Source: an uncultured archaeon
GTDB taxonomy: Archaea > Asgardarchaeota > Lokiarchaeia > Sigyniarchaeales > SOKP01
Direction: 5' to 3'
Length of the DNA stretch: 25,581 bases
Assembly: GCA_964447495.1 (NCBI GenBank)
Contig: CAYUTF010000035.1
Location: 1-25,581 of the forward strand
The notes beneath the pieces were generated by a model that was given only the letters and a program-made list of their open reading frames with translations, was not told the DNA's origin and made no database searches. Of the stretch, positions 89-9,711 are shown piece after piece (positions within the stretch are counted from its first letter, which is position 1; each line of letters begins with the position of its first letter). Position numbers and translations under genes: made by a program.

Positions 89-328
89 CTATTTTACTGC
101 TTCAAAATAGATGTGCCATTGTTCTTCGTCTTCGATAAAATCGGTTCCTAAATGCTTATGTTTTGTTTGCTTTAATAAGTCTCTTGGAACGGATTCACTT
201 GCGGGTTTATAATCTGTTATAACCTTTAAAACTGTTCCTGGTCGCATTTTCATAAGTTGCTTCTTTGTCTTCAATGCGGGAACAGGACAAACTAATCCGC
301 AAACATTTAATTCCATATCAAAATTCAT
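89..328 (-). CDS. tusA: TusA/SirA-family sulfur carrier protein (copy 2, last gene of the cluster)
   Basis: 79 aa; LNVCGLVCPVP contains the TusA CPxP motif; GTVLKVITD is typical; SD-like GAGGA upstream of the ATG. Confidence 0.9.
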   Translation of the reverse strand: MNFDMELNVCGLVCPVPALKTKKQLMKMRPGTVLKVITDYKPASESVPRDLLKQTKHKHLGTDFIEDEEQWHIYFEAVK

Positions 329-362: not shown

Positions 363-2834
363 TTATTCACATACTAAATTAAATATTGGCTCATCCATAT
401 CGGGCTCAACTTTCATTTCAATTTTCATTAACTGAGCTAAACGAAGAGCCTCGTAACGAACTTTCTTCGGTTCTAATCGTAAATTTTTTGCGATTTCACT
501 AATAGTACTTGATCCTTGAAGAGTTATATAATCTAAAACCTGTTGTCGAGGTGTTTTTTCGAAGTTTAACAATTCGCGCTTCGATTTAAGATTAATTGCC
601 TTTTTTATTTCTTCTTCATTTACATCTCCTATTTCAAAAAGTTCCTCTTTTATAGCATTCTCTATGATCTCTTTTCCTCTTTCAGTCCACACTACCACAG
701 TGGTGTATCCTTTCTTTGAGCCAACCTCTCCTGCTGTTAAATCAGAATAAATTGCTGGAAAGTCTTGACAATGAGAACAAAAGTGATTGCAGCTTAAACA
801 TCTTCGTGCTTCTTGAAGAGCCATATCTTCATTAAACATCTTATCAATTTCTTCAAAACTCCAAGAAATCTCCTCAGTTGCATCTTCTAATGTATCGGGT
901 TTCAATGAATAATCTTTTGGTGGCTTTTTTGGACCAGTGAAAAACATTTGTTCTCTTAAATAACGTCCTTCCATTAAGTCTTCACCTTTAAGATATCGAT
1001 CAATAGAGATTGCTGCTTCTTTCCCATGAGCAATTGCAGCTATAGCTACGGCTTTTGAGTTATTAATAATATCACCCCCCGCAAAAACTCCTGGGATGTT
1101 TGTTTCGAAGGTAATTTCATTAACTTTTATTTTATTACGTTCTTTTTCTAACTGATTTTGGGTTGCTACATCAATTTGTTCAAAGTCTACTGCCTGTCCA
1201 ACGGCAATCACTACAGAATCTACAGGGATTTTATAATCTGAACCCTCAACTTTATTTAAAGGTCTTCTACCGGTTTCATCTGGTTGACCCCATTCAATTT
1301 TATAACAGTTTAATTCAAGTTGACCATCTTTATTCTCTGTGATTTTAGATGTTGATGTAGCAAAGTGATATTGCATGTATTGGATCTCATTTTCCGGAAT
1401 ATCTTTTAAAACCAGCTCAAGCTGTTCTTCTGACATGATATCAACGAGATGAATTTGTTTTGCACCTAATCTGAGAGCTGTTTGCCCAACATCAACTGCA
1501 ACTGGACCGCCACCAATAATTCCAATTAATCTATCTTTAAATTCCTCATTGTTTTCCCAGTATCGATATTTTCTTTCCATAAGAAATGTAATTGCAACAT
1601 GGACATGAGGTAAATCTTCCCCTTCTAAGTGTAATGTTCGTGGTTTATATTGACCTGTAGCGATGAATATTGCTTCAAAACCCTCATTCTTTAAATCATC
1701 AATCGTCATTTTCGGTCCTAATGGTTTATTAAGTTCAATTTTTACTCCAGATTCCTCTATACGAGATACATCATAATCTAATACATAATTTGGTAATCGA
1801 AATTGTGGTACTCCAAATCGTAACATTCCCCCTGTTTTATCTGATTTTTCGAATATTGTTGGAGCATAGCCCTTTTTTTTCAAAAAGTAACCTGCTGTCA
1901 ATCCTGCAGGGCCAGATCCTATAATCGCAACCTTCTTAGCATTTTTATTGGTCACTTTCTTTCGTTTTAGTGCTTTAGTTTTTGCTTGTTCAATCTCCCA
2001 TTCAGTGACAAATTTCTTTAATTCTCGAATCGCTACCGGATGATCATCACCAATTAAGGTACAACCATGTTCACATTCATTTGTACAAATCCTTCCGCAA
2101 ATTGATGGAAGAGGATTATTCTCTCGAATTAAATTCACAGCGTCTTGATATTTTCCTTGACGAATTAATGAAATATATCCTTGAGCATTAACACCAGAAG
2201 GGCATCCATTGCAGCATGGAGAACATACTAAGCCTTGGTCGGTTTGTTTTGTTCTTATGTGAGAATTACAAAACAGCCCAATTTTTAGAATTTCACGTTT
2301 TATATCACTTTCTAATTCAGCTGCGCCCCTCATTTCACAAGGAACACCAACAATGCCTATTGATTCGTTGGTTTGCCCAACTAAATTAACTAGCTTTTCA
2401 AGAACCCCAGAACGACCATATACAACGCCAGCTTTCTTTACGGCTTCATCAGAATTCGATACAATTTCTGCTTTTGGTTTTTCATCATTTTCTTGAACCA
2501 TAACTATTTCCTCAAGAACTTTCGAATCTAATAATGTTTTAGCTAAAGTCGTTACTACTCCACCATTCGCAGCTTTTGCTAATATTTCAGGATTTTTACT
2601 TCGCAAAGAATAGATAGCTTTTGGTTTTTTTGATTTGAATTTTTTCTGTATTACCTGCGGGCAATTTTCATAACACCGACCGCAGTCTTGTCCATCCCTT
2701 TCAAGAATACAATAGTCTTTTAGAACAGGACGCTTCACACTCATTTCAATATGTTTACATGAACCAGCACATAAGCCACAGCCCTGGCATAATCCTGCCT
2801 CAATTATTTCAGTTTTTAATAATTCAAAACTCAT
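363..2834 (-). CDS. Fe-S flavoprotein: FrhB/FdhB-like (F420-hydrogenase beta) domain interrupted by a GltD/SudA/NfnB-like NAD(P)H:flavin module, with a C-terminal winged helix
   Basis: N-terminal CQGCGLCAGSC and CGRCYENCP; FrhB motifs GGVVTTL, VGVPC and IGLFC; GltD motifs PCCNGCP, ICGRICTNECEHGC, IIGSGPAG, IIGGGPVAVD, TNIPGVFAGGD and EARRCLSC; FrhB C-terminal part CSHCQDF...DLTAGEVGSKKGYTTVVVWTERG; last ~60 aa HTH-like. Confidence 0.85.
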   Translation of the reverse strand: MSFELLKTEIIEAGLCQGCGLCAGSCKHIEMSVKRPVLKDYCILERDGQDCGRCYENCPQVIQKKFKSKKPKAIYSLRSKNPEILAKAANGGVVTTLAKTLLDSKVLEEIVMVQENDEKPKAEIVSNSDEAVKKAGVVYGRSGVLEKLVNLVGQTNESIGIVGVPCEMRGAAELESDIKREILKIGLFCNSHIRTKQTDQGLVCSPCCNGCPSGVNAQGYISLIRQGKYQDAVNLIRENNPLPSICGRICTNECEHGCTLIGDDHPVAIRELKKFVTEWEIEQAKTKALKRKKVTNKNAKKVAIIGSGPAGLTAGYFLKKKGYAPTIFEKSDKTGGMLRFGVPQFRLPNYVLDYDVSRIEESGVKIELNKPLGPKMTIDDLKNEGFEAIFIATGQYKPRTLHLEGEDLPHVHVAITFLMERKYRYWENNEEFKDRLIGIIGGGPVAVDVGQTALRLGAKQIHLVDIMSEEQLELVLKDIPENEIQYMQYHFATSTSKITENKDGQLELNCYKIEWGQPDETGRRPLNKVEGSDYKIPVDSVVIAVGQAVDFEQIDVATQNQLEKERNKIKVNEITFETNIPGVFAGGDIINNSKAVAIAAIAHGKEAAISIDRYLKGEDLMEGRYLREQMFFTGPKKPPKDYSLKPDTLEDATEEISWSFEEIDKMFNEDMALQEARRCLSCNHFCSHCQDFPAIYSDLTAGEVGSKKGYTTVVVWTERGKEIIENAIKEELFEIGDVNEEEIKKAINLKSKRELLNFEKTPRQQVLDYITLQGSSTISEIAKNLRLEPKKVRYEALRLAQLMKIEMKVEPDMDEPIFNLVCE

Positions 2835-2836
2835 TT

Positions 2837-4072
2837 TTATCCCTCTTTGATTTTGATTTCTTTAATTATTCCCTTTGGATCAATACTATAATTTACCGAC
2901 CCATTTTTATAGATTCCTTCCACCACTTCAAAAACATGGCTTTTATATGTTTCAAAATTATCATTATCTTCAATTTGTTTTTTAAATCCGCCAAAATAAA
3001 GATTAGACAGATTCATATTTCCAGCAATTTTCCTAATTTTTTCAGTCGTTTCTTTATACTTTTGAGCATCTTCTTCGCTTGTAGCCTTAATTAATTCAGA
3101 TTCCAATTTAAGTAATTCGGCCCGATACTTTTTTGTTTGTTCGCTTATCTCAATATTATTAGCTTTTTCATAAGATTCTATAATCTTAAGAGTAAGGGAA
3201 ATTGACTTATTTCCTCCTAATAATCCTGTAATCAGAGGTAATTCCTCAATTAATCTTCCAGTAAAAACATCTTGTAATAATTTACCTGAAGATGGTATTC
3301 TACCTGTTGGTAAGCCTGAGGTTGGTAAAGTAAATCTGAAAAAATTTCCGAGAATATCTGGTAGGCTCTCGGTAACATCATCGTCAGCGTCAGCAAGCTT
3401 GTCCGTTGCTCCTTTTTCAGAATGTTCAGTAGCCATTTCAACATTTCCCATAAGAGTACCAAACATCCCTAACATACGGATTCCCGATCGTTCAAGCATC
3501 GGTTTACATCCTCTGCATGGAGTATTGTAATCTATACATCTTTCTTTACATGCTTTTGCTATAAATCCATTACACAGAAATCCTAAATCGTTAAAGCAAG
3601 TATTAGTGTCATCAATCTCGATCTGTCGATTTACTCTATCAAGATAATCGCAAGTTGCTCTCCTCTTACAGACATTGCAAAGTGGTTTGCTTTTAGGAAG
3701 CTCCTTTTCATTTATTATGTAACTCAACTCCTCAATTTCTCCTAGACAACCATTAACATTAAAACCATTACTAATTAAGGAATTTAAAGGAGTTACTTTA
3801 TGTCCTTTTTGGTTTGCTAATGCAAATACCCCACCCGTTGTCGTACAATCACCAAAGGCAACAACTTTTTTAGAATTCTTTTTGATTCGTTCTATCCATT
3901 CTTTATCAGCTGGTAATAAATACCCTGTAATAATAGCCAGATCTATAGATTCTTCCTTCCATTCGCTTGGCTTGGAAATGAGTTCTACATTGATTTTATT
4001 ATCTAACTTCAAAAGAATTGTTTCATAAAAACATTTATTACAACCGTTAAACTGAAAAACTCTAACATTCAT
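2837..4072 (-). CDS. mvhG: MvhG/VhuG-like [NiFe]-hydrogenase small-subunit homologue with a ~150 aa cysteine-free C-terminal extension
   Basis: GCNKC, VAFGDCTTTGG and NGC (proximal cluster); LCNVC, CFNDLGFLC and CKERC...PCRGC (distal/medial clusters); DILGNFFRFTLP resembles the MvhG tail; directly follows mvhD. Confidence 0.75.
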   Translation of the reverse strand: MNVRVFQFNGCNKCFYETILLKLDNKINVELISKPSEWKEESIDLAIITGYLLPADKEWIERIKKNSKKVVAFGDCTTTGGVFALANQKGHKVTPLNSLISNGFNVNGCLGEIEELSYIINEKELPKSKPLCNVCKRRATCDYLDRVNRQIEIDDTNTCFNDLGFLCNGFIAKACKERCIDYNTPCRGCKPMLERSGIRMLGMFGTLMGNVEMATEHSEKGATDKLADADDDVTESLPDILGNFFRFTLPTSGLPTGRIPSSGKLLQDVFTGRLIEELPLITGLLGGNKSISLTLKIIESYEKANNIEISEQTKKYRAELLKLESELIKATSEEDAQKYKETTEKIRKIAGNMNLSNLYFGGFKKQIEDNDNFETYKSHVFEVVEGIYKNGSVNYSIDPKGIIKEIKIKEG

Positions 4073-4514
4073 CTTTGATTGTCCCCTCTTCTTTAATTGC
4101 TGTAGTCAATCGATCAACAATATCCTCGAAATCTCCAACTGCGGTTTCACCTTCAGCAGCTCTCGATGTATATTGGTTAATAAATTGATCACTATATCCT
4201 AATTCTTTGAATAACTTTTTCATTAATTTTATTCTATGCATCGAAAGTAAATTTCCATTAAAAAAATGACATGCACCTATACAACATCCTACGCACGCAA
4301 CAGCATCAGCACCGTTACTTAAAGCGTCCATAATCTGAATGGGTCCAATTTGACCGGTACATTGAACTCTGACAATTCTAATTGCAGGTTCATATGCCAT
4401 TCGAGCCACTCCAGCAGTATTCGCTGAGCCTTGACCACACTCATTACACATAAATACTACTACATTTTGTATTTTTTCCTTTATTTCTTCATCGATTACT
4501 TCACAATCACTCAT
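4062..4514 (-). CDS. mvhD: MvhD-type [2Fe-2S] Hdr adaptor subunit
   Basis: FMCNEC, IRIVRVQCTGQI, ALSNGADAV and GCCIGACHF match the MvhD/FlpD pattern; ATG at 4514 overlaps the hdrA TGA (ATGA) and has GGAGGTG upstream, so it is preferred to the TTG at 4520. Confidence 0.88.
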   Translation of the reverse strand: MSDCEVIDEEIKEKIQNVVVFMCNECGQGSANTAGVARMAYEPAIRIVRVQCTGQIGPIQIMDALSNGADAVACVGCCIGACHFFNGNLLSMHRIKLMKKLFKELGYSDQFINQYTSRAAEGETAVGDFEDIVDRLTTAIKEEGTIKDEC

Positions 4515-6541
4515 TCGCAAACAGCACCTCCGCCAGAAACAGCGATTATTTCATCTAATAATTGATCATCTTTAAAATTAATTAATTGTATTGCTCCAGT
4601 AGGGCACACAGGCATACACATGCCGCATGATTTACACGCAACTTCATTAACAGATGGAATTCCATTTTCATCAATATCAATAGCCGCTGGCGCGCAAACG
4701 GTTTTACATAATCCACACTTAACACATAGGTCATAATTGATGGTAGGAATTAACATTTCTTTCTCAATATATCCTTTTACTAATGGGGCAGCCGCTAAAG
4801 CAGCAGCACTTCCTGCATGTGCCACCGATTCTGAAATATCTTTTGGACCTTGGATTGCTCCTGCCAAAAATATTCCTCCTTTACTGCTTAGAGTTGGATT
4901 CATCTTGATATGAAATTCTTTAAGAAATCCCTCTTTTGATCGCAACACATGAAGTTTCGACCCAAGTGGACCGATCCCTTCAGGAGGGACCATAGCAGCA
5001 GAAAGAACCACTAAATCTGCTTTTAATTGTAATGGCGTTTGACTTAGAGTATCTTCAACAATAACTCTTAATTCACCCGAAATTGGGTTTCGTACTATTT
5101 CAGAAGGTCTCCCTCGAATAAATCTTACCCCTATCTCTTGGGCAGATTTATAGAGTTCTTCAAAGTTAAGCCCAGGCGTTCTGATATCAATATAACAAAT
5201 AGTAACATCGGTATCAGGATACATCTCTTTAATGATTCGCGCATTTTTTATTGCAAATTTACAACATACACCCGTACAATACTGATTTCCGACTTGGTCA
5301 TTTCTACTTCCTACACACTGAATCATAACAACGTTTTTTGGTATTTTACCATCAGAAGGTCTTAAAACTTCACTATTTGTCAATGATGTAGGAGATAACA
5401 TTCGTTCAAGCTTAAGTTGGGTAATCACATCTTCATATCCTTCTTGATTATAGTGATAAGGCTCTATTTCTGTGGGATCATATTCATCATACCCAGCCGC
5501 GACGATAATTGACCCCACTTTTACCGTTTTAGTTTCTGGTTGCATCGAAAAATCTACCGCTTGAACAGGACAAACATTTACACATGTATTGCATTCAATA
5601 CAGTTTTTCTTATCCCGTACATATGTTGCGGGAATCGCTTGCGGGTATGCTTTATATATCGCTTTCCGCATAGACATTCCCATATCCCATTCACTAGGAA
5701 GTTCAACTGGGCAGTGTTCCGCACATTCACCACAAGAAGTACAATTATCTTTGACATAACGGGGCTTAATTTCAAATTCAACTTCAAAATTTCCCAAAGA
5801 ACCGTCTATATTCTTCACTTGAGCATTAGTATACAATTCTATCAAAGGATGATTTGCAACTCCATTCGTTAGAGGTGAGATTGAACATTGTGGACATTCA
5901 AGGGTAGGAAAAGTCTTGTTTAACCTCGTCATATGCCCCCCAATAGTTGATTCTCTCTCTATAAGATATACTGGAATACCTAATTCTGCCATATCATGTG
6001 CCGCCCGAAGACCAGCGATGCCTGCTCCGATTACTAAAGCCGCTTTTGTAGTTTTTACTTTTCGAGTTTCAACATCTTCTAGTTTACGCGCTCTATTTAC
6101 TCCTGCTTCAACCAATTGCTTAGCTTTTTGATTTGCCTTATCTTTTTCCTTTTGGTGAACCCAGCTACAATATTCGCGTACATTCACTTGTTGATGACGA
6201 TGTTTATTAAGCCCCATTTCCTCAATAGCTCGTGCAAATGTCTTTCCATGTTGATTTTTGGAACAACTTGCCACTACAGTACGATTCACCCCTAATTCTT
6301 TAATAGAATCTTTTACCATTTGAACTCCTGGTTTTGAACACATAAACATATAATGTTCTGCTTTTACAACATTAGGCAATGTTTTTGCATAATCAGCAAC
6401 TTTAGCAACATCCACAGTACCTGCAATATTATGACCACAATGACATACAAACACTCCAATTCTTGGTTCTTCTGAATCTATTTCTTTTGATTCCTCTTCA
6501 GTAGTATCTGTTTTTTTTACTTTTCCTTCTTTTATTGTCAA
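4511..6541 (-). CDS. hdrA: Heterodisulfide reductase subunit A (flavin, electron-bifurcating type)
   Basis: RIGVFVCHCG, NVREYCSWVH, LVIGAGIAG, GGHM..L.KTFPT, inserted ferredoxin (CTSCGEC..CP, CIECNTC..CP), IQCVGSR, YCTGVCC, GPKDI, C-terminal 2x[4Fe-4S]; TTG start 1 nt after the hdrB stop. Confidence 0.96.
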   Translation of the reverse strand: MTIKEGKVKKTDTTEEESKEIDSEEPRIGVFVCHCGHNIAGTVDVAKVADYAKTLPNVVKAEHYMFMCSKPGVQMVKDSIKELGVNRTVVASCSKNQHGKTFARAIEEMGLNKHRHQQVNVREYCSWVHQKEKDKANQKAKQLVEAGVNRARKLEDVETRKVKTTKAALVIGAGIAGLRAAHDMAELGIPVYLIERESTIGGHMTRLNKTFPTLECPQCSISPLTNGVANHPLIELYTNAQVKNIDGSLGNFEVEFEIKPRYVKDNCTSCGECAEHCPVELPSEWDMGMSMRKAIYKAYPQAIPATYVRDKKNCIECNTCVNVCPVQAVDFSMQPETKTVKVGSIIVAAGYDEYDPTEIEPYHYNQEGYEDVITQLKLERMLSPTSLTNSEVLRPSDGKIPKNVVMIQCVGSRNDQVGNQYCTGVCCKFAIKNARIIKEMYPDTDVTICYIDIRTPGLNFEELYKSAQEIGVRFIRGRPSEIVRNPISGELRVIVEDTLSQTPLQLKADLVVLSAAMVPPEGIGPLGSKLHVLRSKEGFLKEFHIKMNPTLSSKGGIFLAGAIQGPKDISESVAHAGSAAALAAAPLVKGYIEKEMLIPTINYDLCVKCGLCKTVCAPAAIDIDENGIPSVNEVACKSCGMCMPVCPTGAIQLINFKDDQLLDEIIAVSGGGAVCE

Positions 6542-6542
6542 T

Positions 6543-7460
6543 TTATATTACCTCTTCCTCCTTTTTCATTTCTCTTTCGCCAAAAATATAATTTTTACCC
6601 ATTAATTGATATTGGAGGCCAACAAACTCTTGATCCATTCCCATACAATATGCAGTTAATTGGGAGATATGGATAACAGGATAGTTATAATTACAGTCCT
6701 TATTTTTATTTAGATAATCTTGCCCTGTTTCAAATTGCAAATGACAAAAGGGGCAAATATCTAGTATAAAATCGGGCTTTACCTCATCTATATTCTTCAT
6801 CTTTTCTCCAAAGATAGTCATGCTTGCATCACCCGAATAGGCTTTTACACCACCACCAGCTCCACAACAAGTTAATTGTTCTTTAAAGCGTACAGATTCA
6901 ACGCCTAACGCTTCAAGATACTCCTCGACAATAGTGGGATTCTCTGAACTTTCAATTTCTCTAATTCGGGTTGGTTTTAGAAAGTGACAACCATAATGAA
7001 CGGCAGCTCTTGCATTTACTTTTCTGACAATTATATCTTCAATACCCCAAGGTCCTATTTCATAACCCAAAACTTCAGCTATGTGGCGAACATTAATGGT
7101 TCCCTTGAACTCATAATCTCCAATAAGCTTTAATTTTTCATTTACCATGATTCTATGGTCTTCGTTTTCTTTCAAGTGCTTATTAACTTCTTGAAGGGTT
7201 CCAAAACACCCATTACAAACGGTCAAAATATCAGTATCTAATTGCTCTGCTATACAAAGATTTCTCGCTGCAGCAACCATCCAATCTACCTTGTTAAATG
7301 AGCGGAACACTCCAGGAGCAGGGCAGCAACCAGCTTTTTTCATGTCTAAAAGTTCGTATCCTAATTTTTCCATGACAAATTTTGTAGCCTTTTCTATTGC
7401 TGGATATCTATTCGGCATTAAACACCCGAGAAAAAACGCAAATGTCTTCTCTTTTACCAT
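6543..7460 (-). CDS. hdrB: Heterodisulfide reductase subunit B (two CCG domains)
   Basis: FLGC, GCCPAPG and CNGC; HYGCH, CCGAGGG and CPFCHLQF; strong SD GGAGGAG. Confidence 0.96.
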   Translation of the reverse strand: MVKEKTFAFFLGCLMPNRYPAIEKATKFVMEKLGYELLDMKKAGCCPAPGVFRSFNKVDWMVAAARNLCIAEQLDTDILTVCNGCFGTLQEVNKHLKENEDHRIMVNEKLKLIGDYEFKGTINVRHIAEVLGYEIGPWGIEDIIVRKVNARAAVHYGCHFLKPTRIREIESSENPTIVEEYLEALGVESVRFKEQLTCCGAGGGVKAYSGDASMTIFGEKMKNIDEVKPDFILDICPFCHLQFETGQDYLNKNKDCNYNYPVIHISQLTAYCMGMDQEFVGLQYQLMGKNYIFGEREMKKEEEVI

Positions 7461-7472
7461 TAATTTCTCCTC

Positions 7473-8021
7473 CTATTCTTTGTCCTCTTCCTCTTTAATT
7501 GGAGGAAGAGCAAACAAATATTTTTCAAAATTCTTTAAATCATTATCATCCCCTTCTTGCTTGAATTTATACAAGGTTGGGGGAAGTTCTTCTAATCCTA
7601 ATTCTACTCTTCTTTTCTTTACTTCATCATTTATTGGAACTGCATGTCCCGTAGTTTTCAAAAACCCTACCACTGCTCTATGATTTGGAGATATATTCCC
7701 TCGTTTTGTGGCATAATTCCTTAATTCCATAATAACATCGGTTGGCCTTACATCTCTGGGACATCGCTCATAACATTGATAACATGTTGTACAAAGCCAA
7801 ATATCGGGATCATCTAAAACAGATACATCTCCTAATACAACTTTTCGCACTATTGAGCGAGTTTTTAAAGCAGTCCATCTGCCACTTTCACAACTCGCAG
7901 TACAAGTTCCACATTGAATACATTTCCAAATGTTAGATTTTCGTTCGATATTTTTAAAAAAATCTTCATCAAAATCTTCATCTGTCTTATATTCTCGATG
8001 TTGTTCTTTTACATCAGACAT
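7473..8021 (-). CDS. hdrC: Heterodisulfide reductase subunit C
   Basis: CIQCGTCTASC, IWLCTTCYQCYERCPR, TGHAVP, RVELGL. Confidence 0.95.
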   Translation of the reverse strand: MSDVKEQHREYKTDEDFDEDFFKNIERKSNIWKCIQCGTCTASCESGRWTALKTRSIVRKVVLGDVSVLDDPDIWLCTTCYQCYERCPRDVRPTDVIMELRNYATKRGNISPNHRAVVGFLKTTGHAVPINDEVKKRRVELGLEELPPTLYKFKQEGDDNDLKNFEKYLFALPPIKEEEDKE

Positions 8022-8067: not shown

Positions 8068-8484
8068 TTATAATGAAACGATTTGTCCACCATTACTCAT
8101 TTCTAAAAATGAGGCGGCTCCAACAGGTTCTTCTACAAAGTCTAATAAGTCTTCTCTTTTAATCCCCATTAAATCCATAGTCATTTGACATGGATATAAT
8201 TTCATATTACCGTTTTCGACAGCTTCTTTAATCATTCCCCATGGATCTTCTATTCCGAACTTTTTCATTCTTTTCAGGAAGATTTTAGCTCCCATACCTT
8301 TCATAGGAGTAGGCATTCCTGCAACTTTAGGTTTAAATTTCTTTTGTAAAAGGTTTAAACCCCAAAACGTAAAGAAAAAGTTCATTTTAGTATCCATGGC
8401 ATCTCCTGTTGTACCAAGGATCATCATCATTGCGAATTTTTCGAATGATTTATCCTTAACAATAAAATTTACTGATTCAGCCAT
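8068..8484 (-). CDS. DsrE2/YrkE-like (DsrE/F superfamily) sulfurtransferase
   Basis: FFFTFWGL, LYPCQMTMDLMG and VGAASFL motifs; ATG at 8484 follows GGTGG, so it is preferred to the GTG at 8493. Confidence 0.88.
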   Translation of the reverse strand: MAESVNFIVKDKSFEKFAMMMILGTTGDAMDTKMNFFFTFWGLNLLQKKFKPKVAGMPTPMKGMGAKIFLKRMKKFGIEDPWGMIKEAVENGNMKLYPCQMTMDLMGIKREDLLDFVEEPVGAASFLEMSNGGQIVSL

Positions 8485-8605
8485 ATTTTCCACCTTTTTT
8501 TGTTTTTTATTTGTTTATATTTTTATGCAATTTTTTTAGCAGAATGCTAAACTTACGCTTTTTATTAATAGATTTAAAAAATTTTTGTAATTTATCCCGG
8601 ATTCA

Positions 8606-8947
8606 CTAAATCCAAGATATTATTTTTGGTGTTACATCTAAAATTTCTATTAGATCGTCATATTCAAGAGGCTTAATCTTATTATGAATACTTTCGGGAT
8701 TCAATCCTCGTGCCATTAAATCAGGTATCATAGCAAATATAGAAATGTTCAATCTGAGTAGTTCCTCCATCGCTTTCGAGATCTTTCCCTTAGCATTCGT
8801 CCCGATTACTCCATCATGAATTAATACTATTCCAATTTGAATGCCTCTATTAATTTGGGATTTAATTAAGGGTAATAATCGTTCTAAATGATTTCCTGTT
8901 ATTTCACTAAATCCAAATAAATATAGCATGTTCATATTTTGCGACAT
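8606..8947 (-). CDS. dsrH: DsrH/TusB-like sulfur relay subunit
   Basis: VLIHDGV, DLMARGL, YDDLIEIL...IISW; third gene of an E-F-H triplet; SD GGAGG. Confidence 0.85.
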   Translation of the reverse strand: MSQNMNMLYLFGFSEITGNHLERLLPLIKSQINRGIQIGIVLIHDGVIGTNAKGKISKAMEELLRLNISIFAMIPDLMARGLNPESIHNKIKPLEYDDLIEILDVTPKIISWI

Positions 8948-8962
8948 TTTTTTAAACCTCCT

Positions 8963-9331
8963 TTAAAATCTAAAGCAAGTATCTGCTCCCTCAATTAACT
9001 CAACTAATTCTTCAATGTTAATAATCTTTAAATTCTCATATTCAATTAAGTCATCAGCAGTCAAACCAGCTTCTTCTAAAGCTGTATCCACTATAAAGAT
9101 TTCTAAATCAGACAGGTCGGCCATTTCAATAATCTCATCAAAATTGTCCATCCCAATCAGTTCTGGCTTTGTATCTTTACTAAACAAATACACTGCATCT
9201 CCCATTAAAACAACCTGGCAACTAATATATTCACCAAGAGCTACAAATCCCGAACCAATACGAATTGCTTCCCCTGCGGAATTTTTCCCAACGGGTGACT
9301 GATCCGATATTATTACCACAGATTCGACCAT
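8963..9331 (-). CDS. dsrF: DsrF/TusC-like sulfur relay subunit
   Basis: SPVG..AGEAIR, VVLMGDAVY, ALEEAGL, C-terminal Phe; lies between the dsrE-like and dsrH-like genes. Confidence 0.82.
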   Translation of the reverse strand: MVESVVIISDQSPVGKNSAGEAIRIGSGFVALGEYISCQVVLMGDAVYLFSKDTKPELIGMDNFDEIIEMADLSDLEIFIVDTALEEAGLTADDLIEYENLKIINIEELVELIEGADTCFRF

Positions 9332-9336
9332 TTTGC

Positions 9337-9711
9337 TTAACCTCCAGTACCAAATACTATTATTTTATCTGATTCAATAGACCAGTTGGAAAAATCTCCT
9401 AAACCCTCTTCAGTAGCTCCTTTAAAAAAGTTTTCTTCACTAATTCCTGTCAAACTTACCCATGTGCTACAACCTGCTACGGGAATACCGTGTTCATTCG
9501 TAAATTCTTCCAACTTTTTTGGAATATGCCTAATTGACGAGCCACAGCTAATATCACTTTTAAGATTGTACACACCCGAACCAAAAAAGAAAATTCCCCT
9601 AATTCTATTTCCCTTTTTAATCACTGATTTTGATATTTCTATAAGTGAATCGACCGCTTCGAACTTATAAGGCTCCGTACTAATAAAGAATGTATAAGTT
9701 GTCATAGTCAA
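9337..9711 (-). CDS. dsrE: DsrE/TusD-like sulfur relay subunit with the conserved Cys
   Basis: EPY, IFFFGSGVYN, VAGCST (position of the DsrE/TusD active Cys), GLG..DKIIVF; start is TTG 9711 or ATG 9705. Confidence 0.85.
   Translation of the reverse strand: MTMTTYTFFISTEPYKFEAVDSLIEISKSVIKKGNRIRGIFFFGSGVYNLKSDISCGSSIRHIPKKLEEFTNEHGIPVAGCSTWVSLTGISEENFFKGATEEGLGDFSNWSIESDKIIVFGTGG

Follow-up and report, generated by a model that had tools for sequence, protein, structure and literature searches.

Heterodisulfide reductase (Hdr) complexes of the HdrABC type are widespread outside methanogens, and their electron donors and acceptors there are mostly unknown. In the Elp-Hdr complex of M. marburgensis, an FrhB-type subunit (ElpB, 8RVU) on a catalytically dead scaffold replaces Mvh as the donor to HdrABC, and in this complex, as in M. 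hungatei's Fdh-Hdr-Fmd complex with its FdhB, the FrhB-type subunit is combined with an MvhD-type connector and HdrABC (PMC12350162). Subunits of the FrhB type hold a [4Fe-4S] cluster on a PC...C...CxxC pattern (PMC10229431, PMC3591093), which in Fsr is spaced as PCX40CX54CX2C (PMC10229431). A different kind of electron port is known from StnC of Sporomusa ovata StnABC (8OH5), in which residues 102-565 form a GltD/NfnB-type domain that acts as a non-bifurcating NADPH port and feeds a chain of clusters (PMC10482914). The same module, ~500 residues long and NfnB-like, is nested in the Fe-S domain of HdrA in some archaea of the anaerobic methanotrophic group ANME-1 (HdrA9-11, 'type III HdrA') and of the Bathyarchaeota, and has been proposed as an entry point for NAD(P)H (PMC9012536, PMC12054007). 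Here, I describe a gene on a 25,581-base stretch of archaeal DNA (hereafter the window; ~32% G+C). The window corresponds to contig C35 in a genome of 3.81 Mb with a completeness of 98.4%, and public relatives of the window's proteins are labelled Promethearchaeota or Lokiarchaeota, both of them names for Asgard archaea. The gene is a single open frame of 823 codons and encodes an FrhB-type protein with a GltD/NfnB-type cassette inside its cluster loop, beside genes for MvhD and HdrABC.

The reading favoured here, to which a probability of roughly 0.6 may be given, is that the reduced pyridine nucleotide NADH enters at the flavin adenine dinucleotide (FAD) of the cassette and that electrons pass through clusters to an MvhG-like subunit, MvhD and HdrA, the protein being the donor arm of a hydrogenase-less HdrABC complex. 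Every part is of a known kind, and the novelty lies in the arrangement: where FrhB has its F420 flap, the cluster loop of this proposed Hdr donor arm holds a permuted cassette; no paper describing a GltD/NfnB module inside FrhB was found in the literature searched, a search with supplements and subscription journals outside its scope.

StnC and the Bfu-type NfnA proteins (9BOV, 9N5U/9N5V) are the best sequence and fold matches to residues (aa) 189-686, with expect values (E) of 1.8e-86 to 1.2e-72, and share with the protein a CxxxCP motif that comes first, a leader RCLxC that comes last, and the nesting of the domain in a host Fe-S protein. Their host, however, is NuoG/FdhA-like and joined to a HydBC-type bifurcating module, whereas here it is FrhB beside Hdr, and such relatives keep an NADPH-type YRR where the cassette-bearing form described here (hereafter the long form) reads VDI. 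No insert interrupts ElpB or FdhB; both use F420H2 and are mounted on a truncated FdhA, while the long form carries a cassette and has an MvhG-like small subunit as its neighbour. FpoF, the N-terminal half of Fsr and the F420-reductase subunits of the CODH/Fwd complexes of Ca. Ethanoperedens (8RIU, 8RJA, 7NP8) have the same layout of ferredoxin domain and FrhB part with the PC...C...CxxC pattern, but the second and third cysteines lie ~54 residues apart in them (PMC10229431) and ~54-57 apart in FrhB-type proteins, compared with 496 here. In ANME-1, the host is the ferredoxin domain of HdrA, in other lineages, and not the donor subunit as in the present case.

A cassette within the FrhB cluster loop

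An initial annotation, made from the letters of the window, had read positions 555..2834 as an FrhB-like domain split by a complete GltD/SudA-like module at aa ~204-682, and had regarded this as a domain insertion or replacement and not an end-to-end fusion. The interval corresponds to aa 1-760 and its conversions of nucleotides to residues hold, although the full frame is 363..2834. All four Pfam families that the annotation had named are present: FrhB_FdhB_N at aa 75-146 (49.0 bits against a cut-off of 22), FrhB_FdhB_C over two stretches (67.8 bits against 23.3; the stronger at aa 668-740, profile positions 79-149 of 150), Fer4_20 at aa 197-283 (81 bits) and Pyr_redox_2 at aa 300-604 (91.4 bits). 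The insert was thus rightly seen, while its limits had to be moved to aa 197-683, giving a cassette of 487 residues between C189 of the LFC motif and C686xxC689. C166, C189, C686 and C689 stand where the annotation had placed them; they do not vary in alignment A1 and fall on the corresponding motifs of FrhB and Fsr.

Sequence searches against the PDB placed both flanks of the cassette in FrhB. The first, aa 72-196, aligns to residues 14-145 of FrhB 6qii_B, and the second, aa 685-763, to residues 192-268 of FrhB 9r51_B. When aa 684-757 were queried alone, they matched residues 269-342 of the FrhB-like chain 8riu_B (E 4.4e-11), the CxxC of that chain lining up with C686 and C689, and the region also matched residues 192-256 of 3zfs_C (E 3e-7); the annotation had staked the split on aa 683-750 being the C-terminal part of FrhB, and this is what they match. 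Further upstream, aa 6-175 align to residues 5-169 of Fsr 7np8_A and residues 12-194 of 8riu_B. The eight N-terminal cysteines form two ferredoxin-type motifs, as in FpoF, Fsr and the F420-reductase subunits, and all eight are invariant in A1.

An AlphaFold2 (AF2) model from a 98-row alignment reached a mean predicted local distance difference test score (pLDDT) of 87.3 and a predicted template modelling score (pTM) of 0.82, and was weak at both seams, aa 192-199 and 649-655, with pLDDT below 50 at the latter. In this model, the two FrhB parts jointly overlay individual FrhB-type chains as a single body, in keeping with the annotation's insertion or replacement. The best FrhB-type fold matches were 8riu_E (Z 29.8, root-mean-square deviation 3.1 Å, 278 residues aligned, model residues 1..758), 8rja_K (Z 28.0) and Fsr 7np8_A (Z 24.4), followed by FrhB 9r51_B (Z 23.0, 224 aligned, model residues 65..761) and Elp-Hdr 8rvu_E (Z 21.8). 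These matches came from an exhaustive structural search; the matches listed by Foldseek against the PDB were of the GltD type only.

In the PDB sequence search, aa 201-618 matched NfnA, StnC, NfnB, GltD and DPD at E 1.8e-86 to 5.7e-37 (NfnB 4ylf_B at 1.1e-69 and 5jca_L at 2.7e-64), and the modelled cassette overlays NfnA 9n5v_A (Z 41.4, 443 aligned, model residues 189..686), StnC 8oh5_C (Z 40.1) and NfnB 4ylf_B (Z 36.1). By its domains, the cassette has ligands for two [4Fe-4S] clusters, an intact FAD motif and an NAD(P)H site. It is circularly permuted. In canonical GltD/NfnB proteins, a leader with RCxxC stands directly before CxxxCP at the N-terminus, whereas here CxxxCP (C207, C211) comes first and the leader (aa 657-682, with C679 and C682) follows the Rossmann domains, being the canonical N-terminal motif in a displaced position. 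The leader region aligns to residues 483-569 of 9bov_A, to residues 482-566 of 8oh5_C and to the motif that follows the domain in 9n5u_A; its match to the N-terminal ends of 4ylf_B (residues 10-47) and 7mfm_I (residues 27-58) is weak. The genome's own NfnB has its leader at the N-terminus only and nothing after the last Rossmann helix. The permuted order is common to the ten relatives that were read and to the cassette rows seen (27 of the 55 rows of alignment A2 per block), and these relatives sit in very different hosts of 500-1500 residues. C207 and C211 are conserved in the distant full-length proteins P0121 and P0122; C204 and C208 are not. By alignment, C679 and C682, just before the CxxC of FrhB, are assigned to the leader of the cassette. 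The module of the initial annotation was therefore of the right GltD/NfnB type, but its permutation and the membership of these two cysteines had been missed. Because its two ends come together at the distal cluster, the cassette can occupy a loop while the host fold stays intact.

The closest cassettes, 52-57% identical, were seen in proteins of ~922-930 aa from the same archaeal family (for example G192:C50:9673-11133 and G252:C21:38063-39517). These proteins are read as of the P0127 type, in which, by the sequence of P0127 and without a family scan, an HdrC-like N-terminus is followed by the cassette and then by a C-terminal part rich in Cys. This suggests that domains were shuffled within the lineage. 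With this query, no such protein turned up in the window's own genome. That genome does contain a further permuted cassette in L003 (G000:C100:2913-7337), a protein of at least 983 aa whose gene is cut by the contig end. There, the cassette is C-terminal with the leader last, and the N-terminal part may be read as NuoF/HydB-like.

Among the outcomes that would count against its reading, the annotation had named an assembly chimera. Contigs of four other sequencing runs (X2-X5, a set that leaves out the possible source run) span both junctions (nt ~2246 and ~786) and show neither differences nor indels nor joints there. The 119 other clusters listed at 71-83% identity (754-825 aa) all have the same four Pfam families. 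In a separate search of 1.84 billion representatives clustered at 50% identity, only P0121 (57%) and P0122 (47%) were, among the matches listed, further full-length proteins of the whole architecture, the others being 4 fragments, 1 short form and 143 cassette-only proteins. Among 301 genomes of the phylum, 32 have a full-length copy, which is at least 71% identical in 30 (the window's own genome included) and 52% and 46% identical in the other two; contig-cut pieces occur in six more. An assembly chimera or a decaying pseudogene is therefore of negligible probability, given also that the frame is open over its whole length, and the architecture was confirmed to be neither a chance product nor a chimera. 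Carriers of the long form are confined to two families of one order, G295 excepted. The genome G295 is placed in another family (f24); its copy (G295:C137:2056-4533) is a full-length long form of 82% identity and may reflect a mis-binned contig or a recent transfer.

Coenzyme sites and operon context

In FrhB of M. marburgensis, the cluster ligands are Cys 104, 134, 192 and 195, and a three-stranded sheet (residues 148-172) lies between Cys 134 and Cys 192. The only conserved part of this sheet is the IGKGK turn at the F420 ring, with lysines proposed to bind the F420 phosphate, and S209 and V210, both small, lie beside the ring (PMC3591093). The initial annotation had noted that the stretch normally found between LFC and CxxC is missing, and this was borne out: the FrhB flap, ~55 residues from the second to the third cysteine, is replaced by the cassette in the long form. 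The equivalent of S209 is E703, and three FrhB paralogues in the same genome retain an INKGK- or GGGK-type turn. From these residues I conclude that the canonical F420 site is probably degraded, its flap lost and its S209 changed to Glu.

The pyridine-nucleotide side of the cassette differs from that of its relatives. Most of these read YRR(S)..EMPA after the second Rossmann strand (27 of the 55 rows of A2 were seen), while the 26 close long forms in A2 read VDI...LEL; P0121 reads VEI and P0122 keeps YRRS. The Asp of VDI is D465 here, and an acidic residue at the YRR position is the usual mark of a preference for NADH over NADPH, a signature that the initial annotation had missed. NADH input with a degraded F420 site is the likelier reading of these sequence features. 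The annotation had left two alternatives, a dual input of F420 and NAD(P) or an FrhB scaffold whose F420 site was traded for a pyridine-nucleotide site; the second is favoured here, and the dual input less so.

The gene stands at the downstream end of a run of Hdr genes on the same strand (Table 1). Its upstream neighbour encodes the MvhG-like Fe-S subunit, of which aa 1-256 correspond to a whole MvhG (profile A3: 9sw2_E at E 4.8e-19 over aa 92-256, 5odc_E at E 1e-16), while its conserved 155-aa tail (aa 257-411) found no relative with the A3 profile against the PDB or in Pfam at E up to 10; the AF2 model of this subunit was poor (pLDDT 50.1, pTM 0.37). The 79-aa frame on the downstream side, which I take to be a TusA-like sulfur carrier by its motif and without a family scan, is nearly identical to the frame that follows the short form in genome G065 (see below). 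Sulfur-carrier genes thus bracket the Hdr genes, which suggests a protein-bound sulfur substrate for this Hdr. No [NiFe] large subunit was found among the 25 window frames scanned, MvhA having been looked for within the window and not in the genome beyond it. As in Elp-Hdr and Fdh-Hdr, an FrhB-type gene is therefore co-encoded with an MvhD-type connector and HdrABC, without a large subunit in the window. The annotation's proposal that the protein is the electron entry point replacing MvhA fits this gene order and the Elp-Hdr precedent (PMC12350162), and is kept here as a proposal.

Table 1. Positions of the gene, its domains, the neighbouring genes and the short forms. Positions refer to the window unless a genome handle is given.
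Feature	Position	Strand	Remarks
NADH-flavoprotein/FrhB gene (predicted function)	363..2834	-	single open frame, 823 codons, 823-aa product
2x[4Fe-4S] ferredoxin domain	2649..2834	-	aa 1-62; Cys 16, 19, 22, 26, 42, 51, 54, 58
FrhB first part	2247..2648	-	aa 63-196; FrhB_FdhB_N and start of FrhB_FdhB_C; C166 (PC), C189 (LFC)
Cassette Fe-S domain (Fer4_20)	1986..2246	-	aa 197-283; CxxxCP C207/C211; C246, C250, C254, C258
Cassette FAD and NAD(P)H Rossmann domains	981..1937	-	aa 300-618; FAD motif intact
Low-confidence linker, then GltD leader helix	786..980	-	aa 619-683; C679, C682
FrhB remainder	561..785	-	aa 684-758; C686, C689, conserved G-x-x-G-S strand region
C-terminal tail of winged-helix topology	366..560	-	aa 759-823
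79-aa open reading frame	89..328	-	Cys-Pro-x-Pro motif; downstream neighbour
MvhG-like Fe-S subunit, 411 aa	2837..4072	-	Pfam Oxidored_q6; upstream neighbour
mvhD	4062..4520	-	Pfam FlpD
hdrA, 676 aa	4511..6541	-	NCBIfam HdrA2/HdrA; ordinary length
hdrB	6543..7460	-	Pfam CCG domains
hdrC	7473..8021	-	
DsrE_2, DsrH and two DsrE-family genes	8068..9711	-	Pfam; upstream of hdrC
Short form L021, ~380 aa	8887..10029 of G065:C4:50000-69000	-	
Short form in G355	G355:C10:50206-51342		
Short form in G382	G382:C203:1955-3148		

The C-terminal tail has the secondary structure H762-773, H778-785, H789-801, E805-808 and E817-820, with a block pLDDT of ~90 in the AF2 model, and could be a docking or a DNA-binding domain. 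It is conserved in the long forms, the short forms and the Thor-labelled relative P0325, and two homologues carry from their source a name ending in '...predicted transcriptional re...'.

Short forms of the protein

Twenty clusters hold short forms of 366-399 aa. Their identity is 62-70% to aa 1-196 and ~70% to aa 660-823, a range that takes in the tail, and they lack aa ~196-253 and ~284-659. What they retain of the cassette is the leader with both its cysteines and a segment that matches, in the alignment, the final helix of the Fe-S domain (aa 256-283); the latter is a generic element of GltD proteins and occurs in the genome's own NfnB too. Eight cysteines are conserved in their linker region, and these would suffice for the FrhB cluster and one vestigial cluster. 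Among 400 genomes of the phylum, the short form is present in three (G065 and G382 of the window's genus, and G355 of a sister genus), and none of the 45 genomes of the order with a match carries both forms. In G065, the order of genes is a 380-aa FrhB-type gene, a 411-aa mvhG-like gene, mvhD, hdrA, hdrB, hdrC and a dsrE2-like gene, and the short form fills the identical slot of the operon. Downstream of it lie the TusA-like frame and genes for an HdrC-like protein of 171 aa and an HdrB-like protein of 290 aa.

Since they keep remnants of the cassette, and from their taxonomy, the short forms appear to be deletion derivatives of the long form. A quick maximum-likelihood tree agrees with this. 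It was built from 70 rows (49 long forms, being every third plus the divergent ones, 20 short forms and P0325) over the columns for aa 1-190 and 684-823, and it places the short forms in one clade (99 in the Shimodaira-Hasegawa-like approximate likelihood ratio test, SH-aLRT) within a clade of 22 long and 20 short forms (SH-aLRT 98). Approximately unbiased (AU) tests allow other placements: a tree in which all long forms were held together had p 0.745 and was better by 10.3 log-likelihood units, with the long-branched outgroup P0325 joining the stem of the short forms, and without P0325, holding the 47 main long forms together cost 17.8 units (p 0.175). The direction of change is accordingly taken from the remnants of the cassette and the taxonomy and not from the tree. 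A complex prediction for the G065 short form (380 aa) with its MvhG-like neighbour (411 aa), run without controls, gave a score of 0.03 against a mark of 0.32, which speaks neither for nor against a contact between them.

Proposed electron route, alternatives and meaning

In the route proposed here, NADH would reduce the FAD of the cassette, and electrons would then pass over the proximal and distal clusters of the cassette to the FrhB cluster (C166, C189, C686, C689), and onward through the two ferredoxin-domain clusters. From there, they would reach the MvhG-like subunit, MvhD and finally the bifurcating FAD of HdrA, so that the long form would serve as donor arm of an HdrABC complex without a hydrogenase. 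The acceptor would probably be a disulfide or persulfide on the co-encoded sulfur carriers, and the FrhB flavin would probably be kept as a relay or side station and not as an F420 site. A fuller and more tentative version, which I consider possible and hold with clearly less conviction, is that the FrhB scaffold no longer uses F420 at all, that the protein is a two-flavin junction, and that NADH drives a nickel-free HdrABC of hydrogenase descent, which would bifurcate electrons towards ferredoxin and a TusA/DsrE-bound persulfide or disulfide.

Several points weigh against the proposed route. The port is a predicted one, its activity, cofactors and binding being read from sequence and model, and the acidic mark for NADH is a rule of thumb. 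The convergence of the four ligand cysteines on one cluster is suggested by a rigid-body superposition together with sequence alignments, and the sulfur-carrier acceptor by the gene neighbourhood. The FrhB part has kept its motifs on the FAD side (GG.VT and the K-Y loop Tyr), and CofH (458.9 bits) and CofE (195.4 bits) are encoded above their cut-offs, from which this genome probably makes F420; F420 may therefore still be used at the FrhB flavin. The short forms, which have no NAD(P)H body and yet keep the slot and the cysteines, show that the FrhB part plays a role of its own, so that NADH cannot be the sole possible donor for complexes of this type.

The same observations form the case for a protein with two inputs or for a transhydrogenase, in which F420/F420H2 would react at the FrhB FAD and NAD(P)H at that of the cassette, so that the protein would either feed Hdr from both pools or equilibrate them over the cluster chain common to the two flavins. 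FrhB_FdhB_N and FrhB_FdhB_C both score above their Pfam cut-offs, the FAD contacts are in place, the genes for F420 synthesis are in part there, and the short forms, which persist in the same operon with conserved cysteines, suggest a working FrhB donor site. However, the sheet with the Lys-rich turn at the F420 ring (PMC3591093) is absent from long and short forms alike, the small S209 next to F420 has become a Glu, and CofD gave a partial match only, below the cut-off. On this balance, a dual input is unlikely, although it deserves to be taken seriously.

Bifurcation could instead take place a second time, at a cassette FAD acting like the bifurcating FAD of NfnB in series with the flavin of HdrA, and the homology of the cassette to NfnB speaks for this, as does the Arg of an FRLP motif, which presumably corresponds to R201 of NfnB. 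The same idea has been raised for the HdrA-NfnB fusions of ANME-1 (PMC9012536). It is nevertheless highly improbable here: the closest solved relatives are StnC, whose FAD has been shown to be non-bifurcating (PMC10482914), and the Bfu-type NfnA proteins, and no NfnA-like [2Fe-2S] cluster or second exit path by the cassette FAD is evident in the sequence. The protein might also stand alone, as an NADH:ferredoxin or NADH:sulfur-carrier oxidoreductase or as a redox-sensing regulator that acts through its winged-helix tail, with the operon being incidental. Its own ferredoxin domain and tail would allow this, and the TusA-like gene follows directly, but the gene order is kept in the congeneric G065 even with a short form, and in Frh, Fdh-Hdr and Elp-Hdr the subunits of the FrhB type are seated on a scaffold that is a hydrogenase small subunit or Fdh (PMC3591093, PMC12350162). 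A stand-alone role is accordingly improbable, and a donor arm that takes NADH at the cassette remains the preferred reading.

The locus has consequences for how such clusters are read. Asgard 'MvhADG-HdrABC' sets are routinely taken for an H2-evolving hydrogenase (bioRxiv 10.1101/726976, 10.1101/2025.02.26.640444). Since the window encodes the small subunit and lacks a large one, and since the donor subunit bears a pyridine-nucleotide module, this Hdr cluster at least should not be counted as a hydrogenase, and may instead link the re-oxidation of NADH to the reduction of ferredoxin. The cassette also offers a natural example of a permuted redox module, its ends meeting at a cluster, that has been dropped into loops of unrelated Fe-S proteins: FrhB here, a NuoG-like protein in StnC and NfnA, and HdrA in ANME-1. 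Long and short forms in one genus provide a ready comparison for biochemistry, and the natural short forms would, if the fuller version above is true, amount to an evolutionary knock-out of the NADH port within the same operon. The archaeal lineage closest to eukaryotes would then possess an NADH-dependent Hdr that is linked to sulfur carriers.

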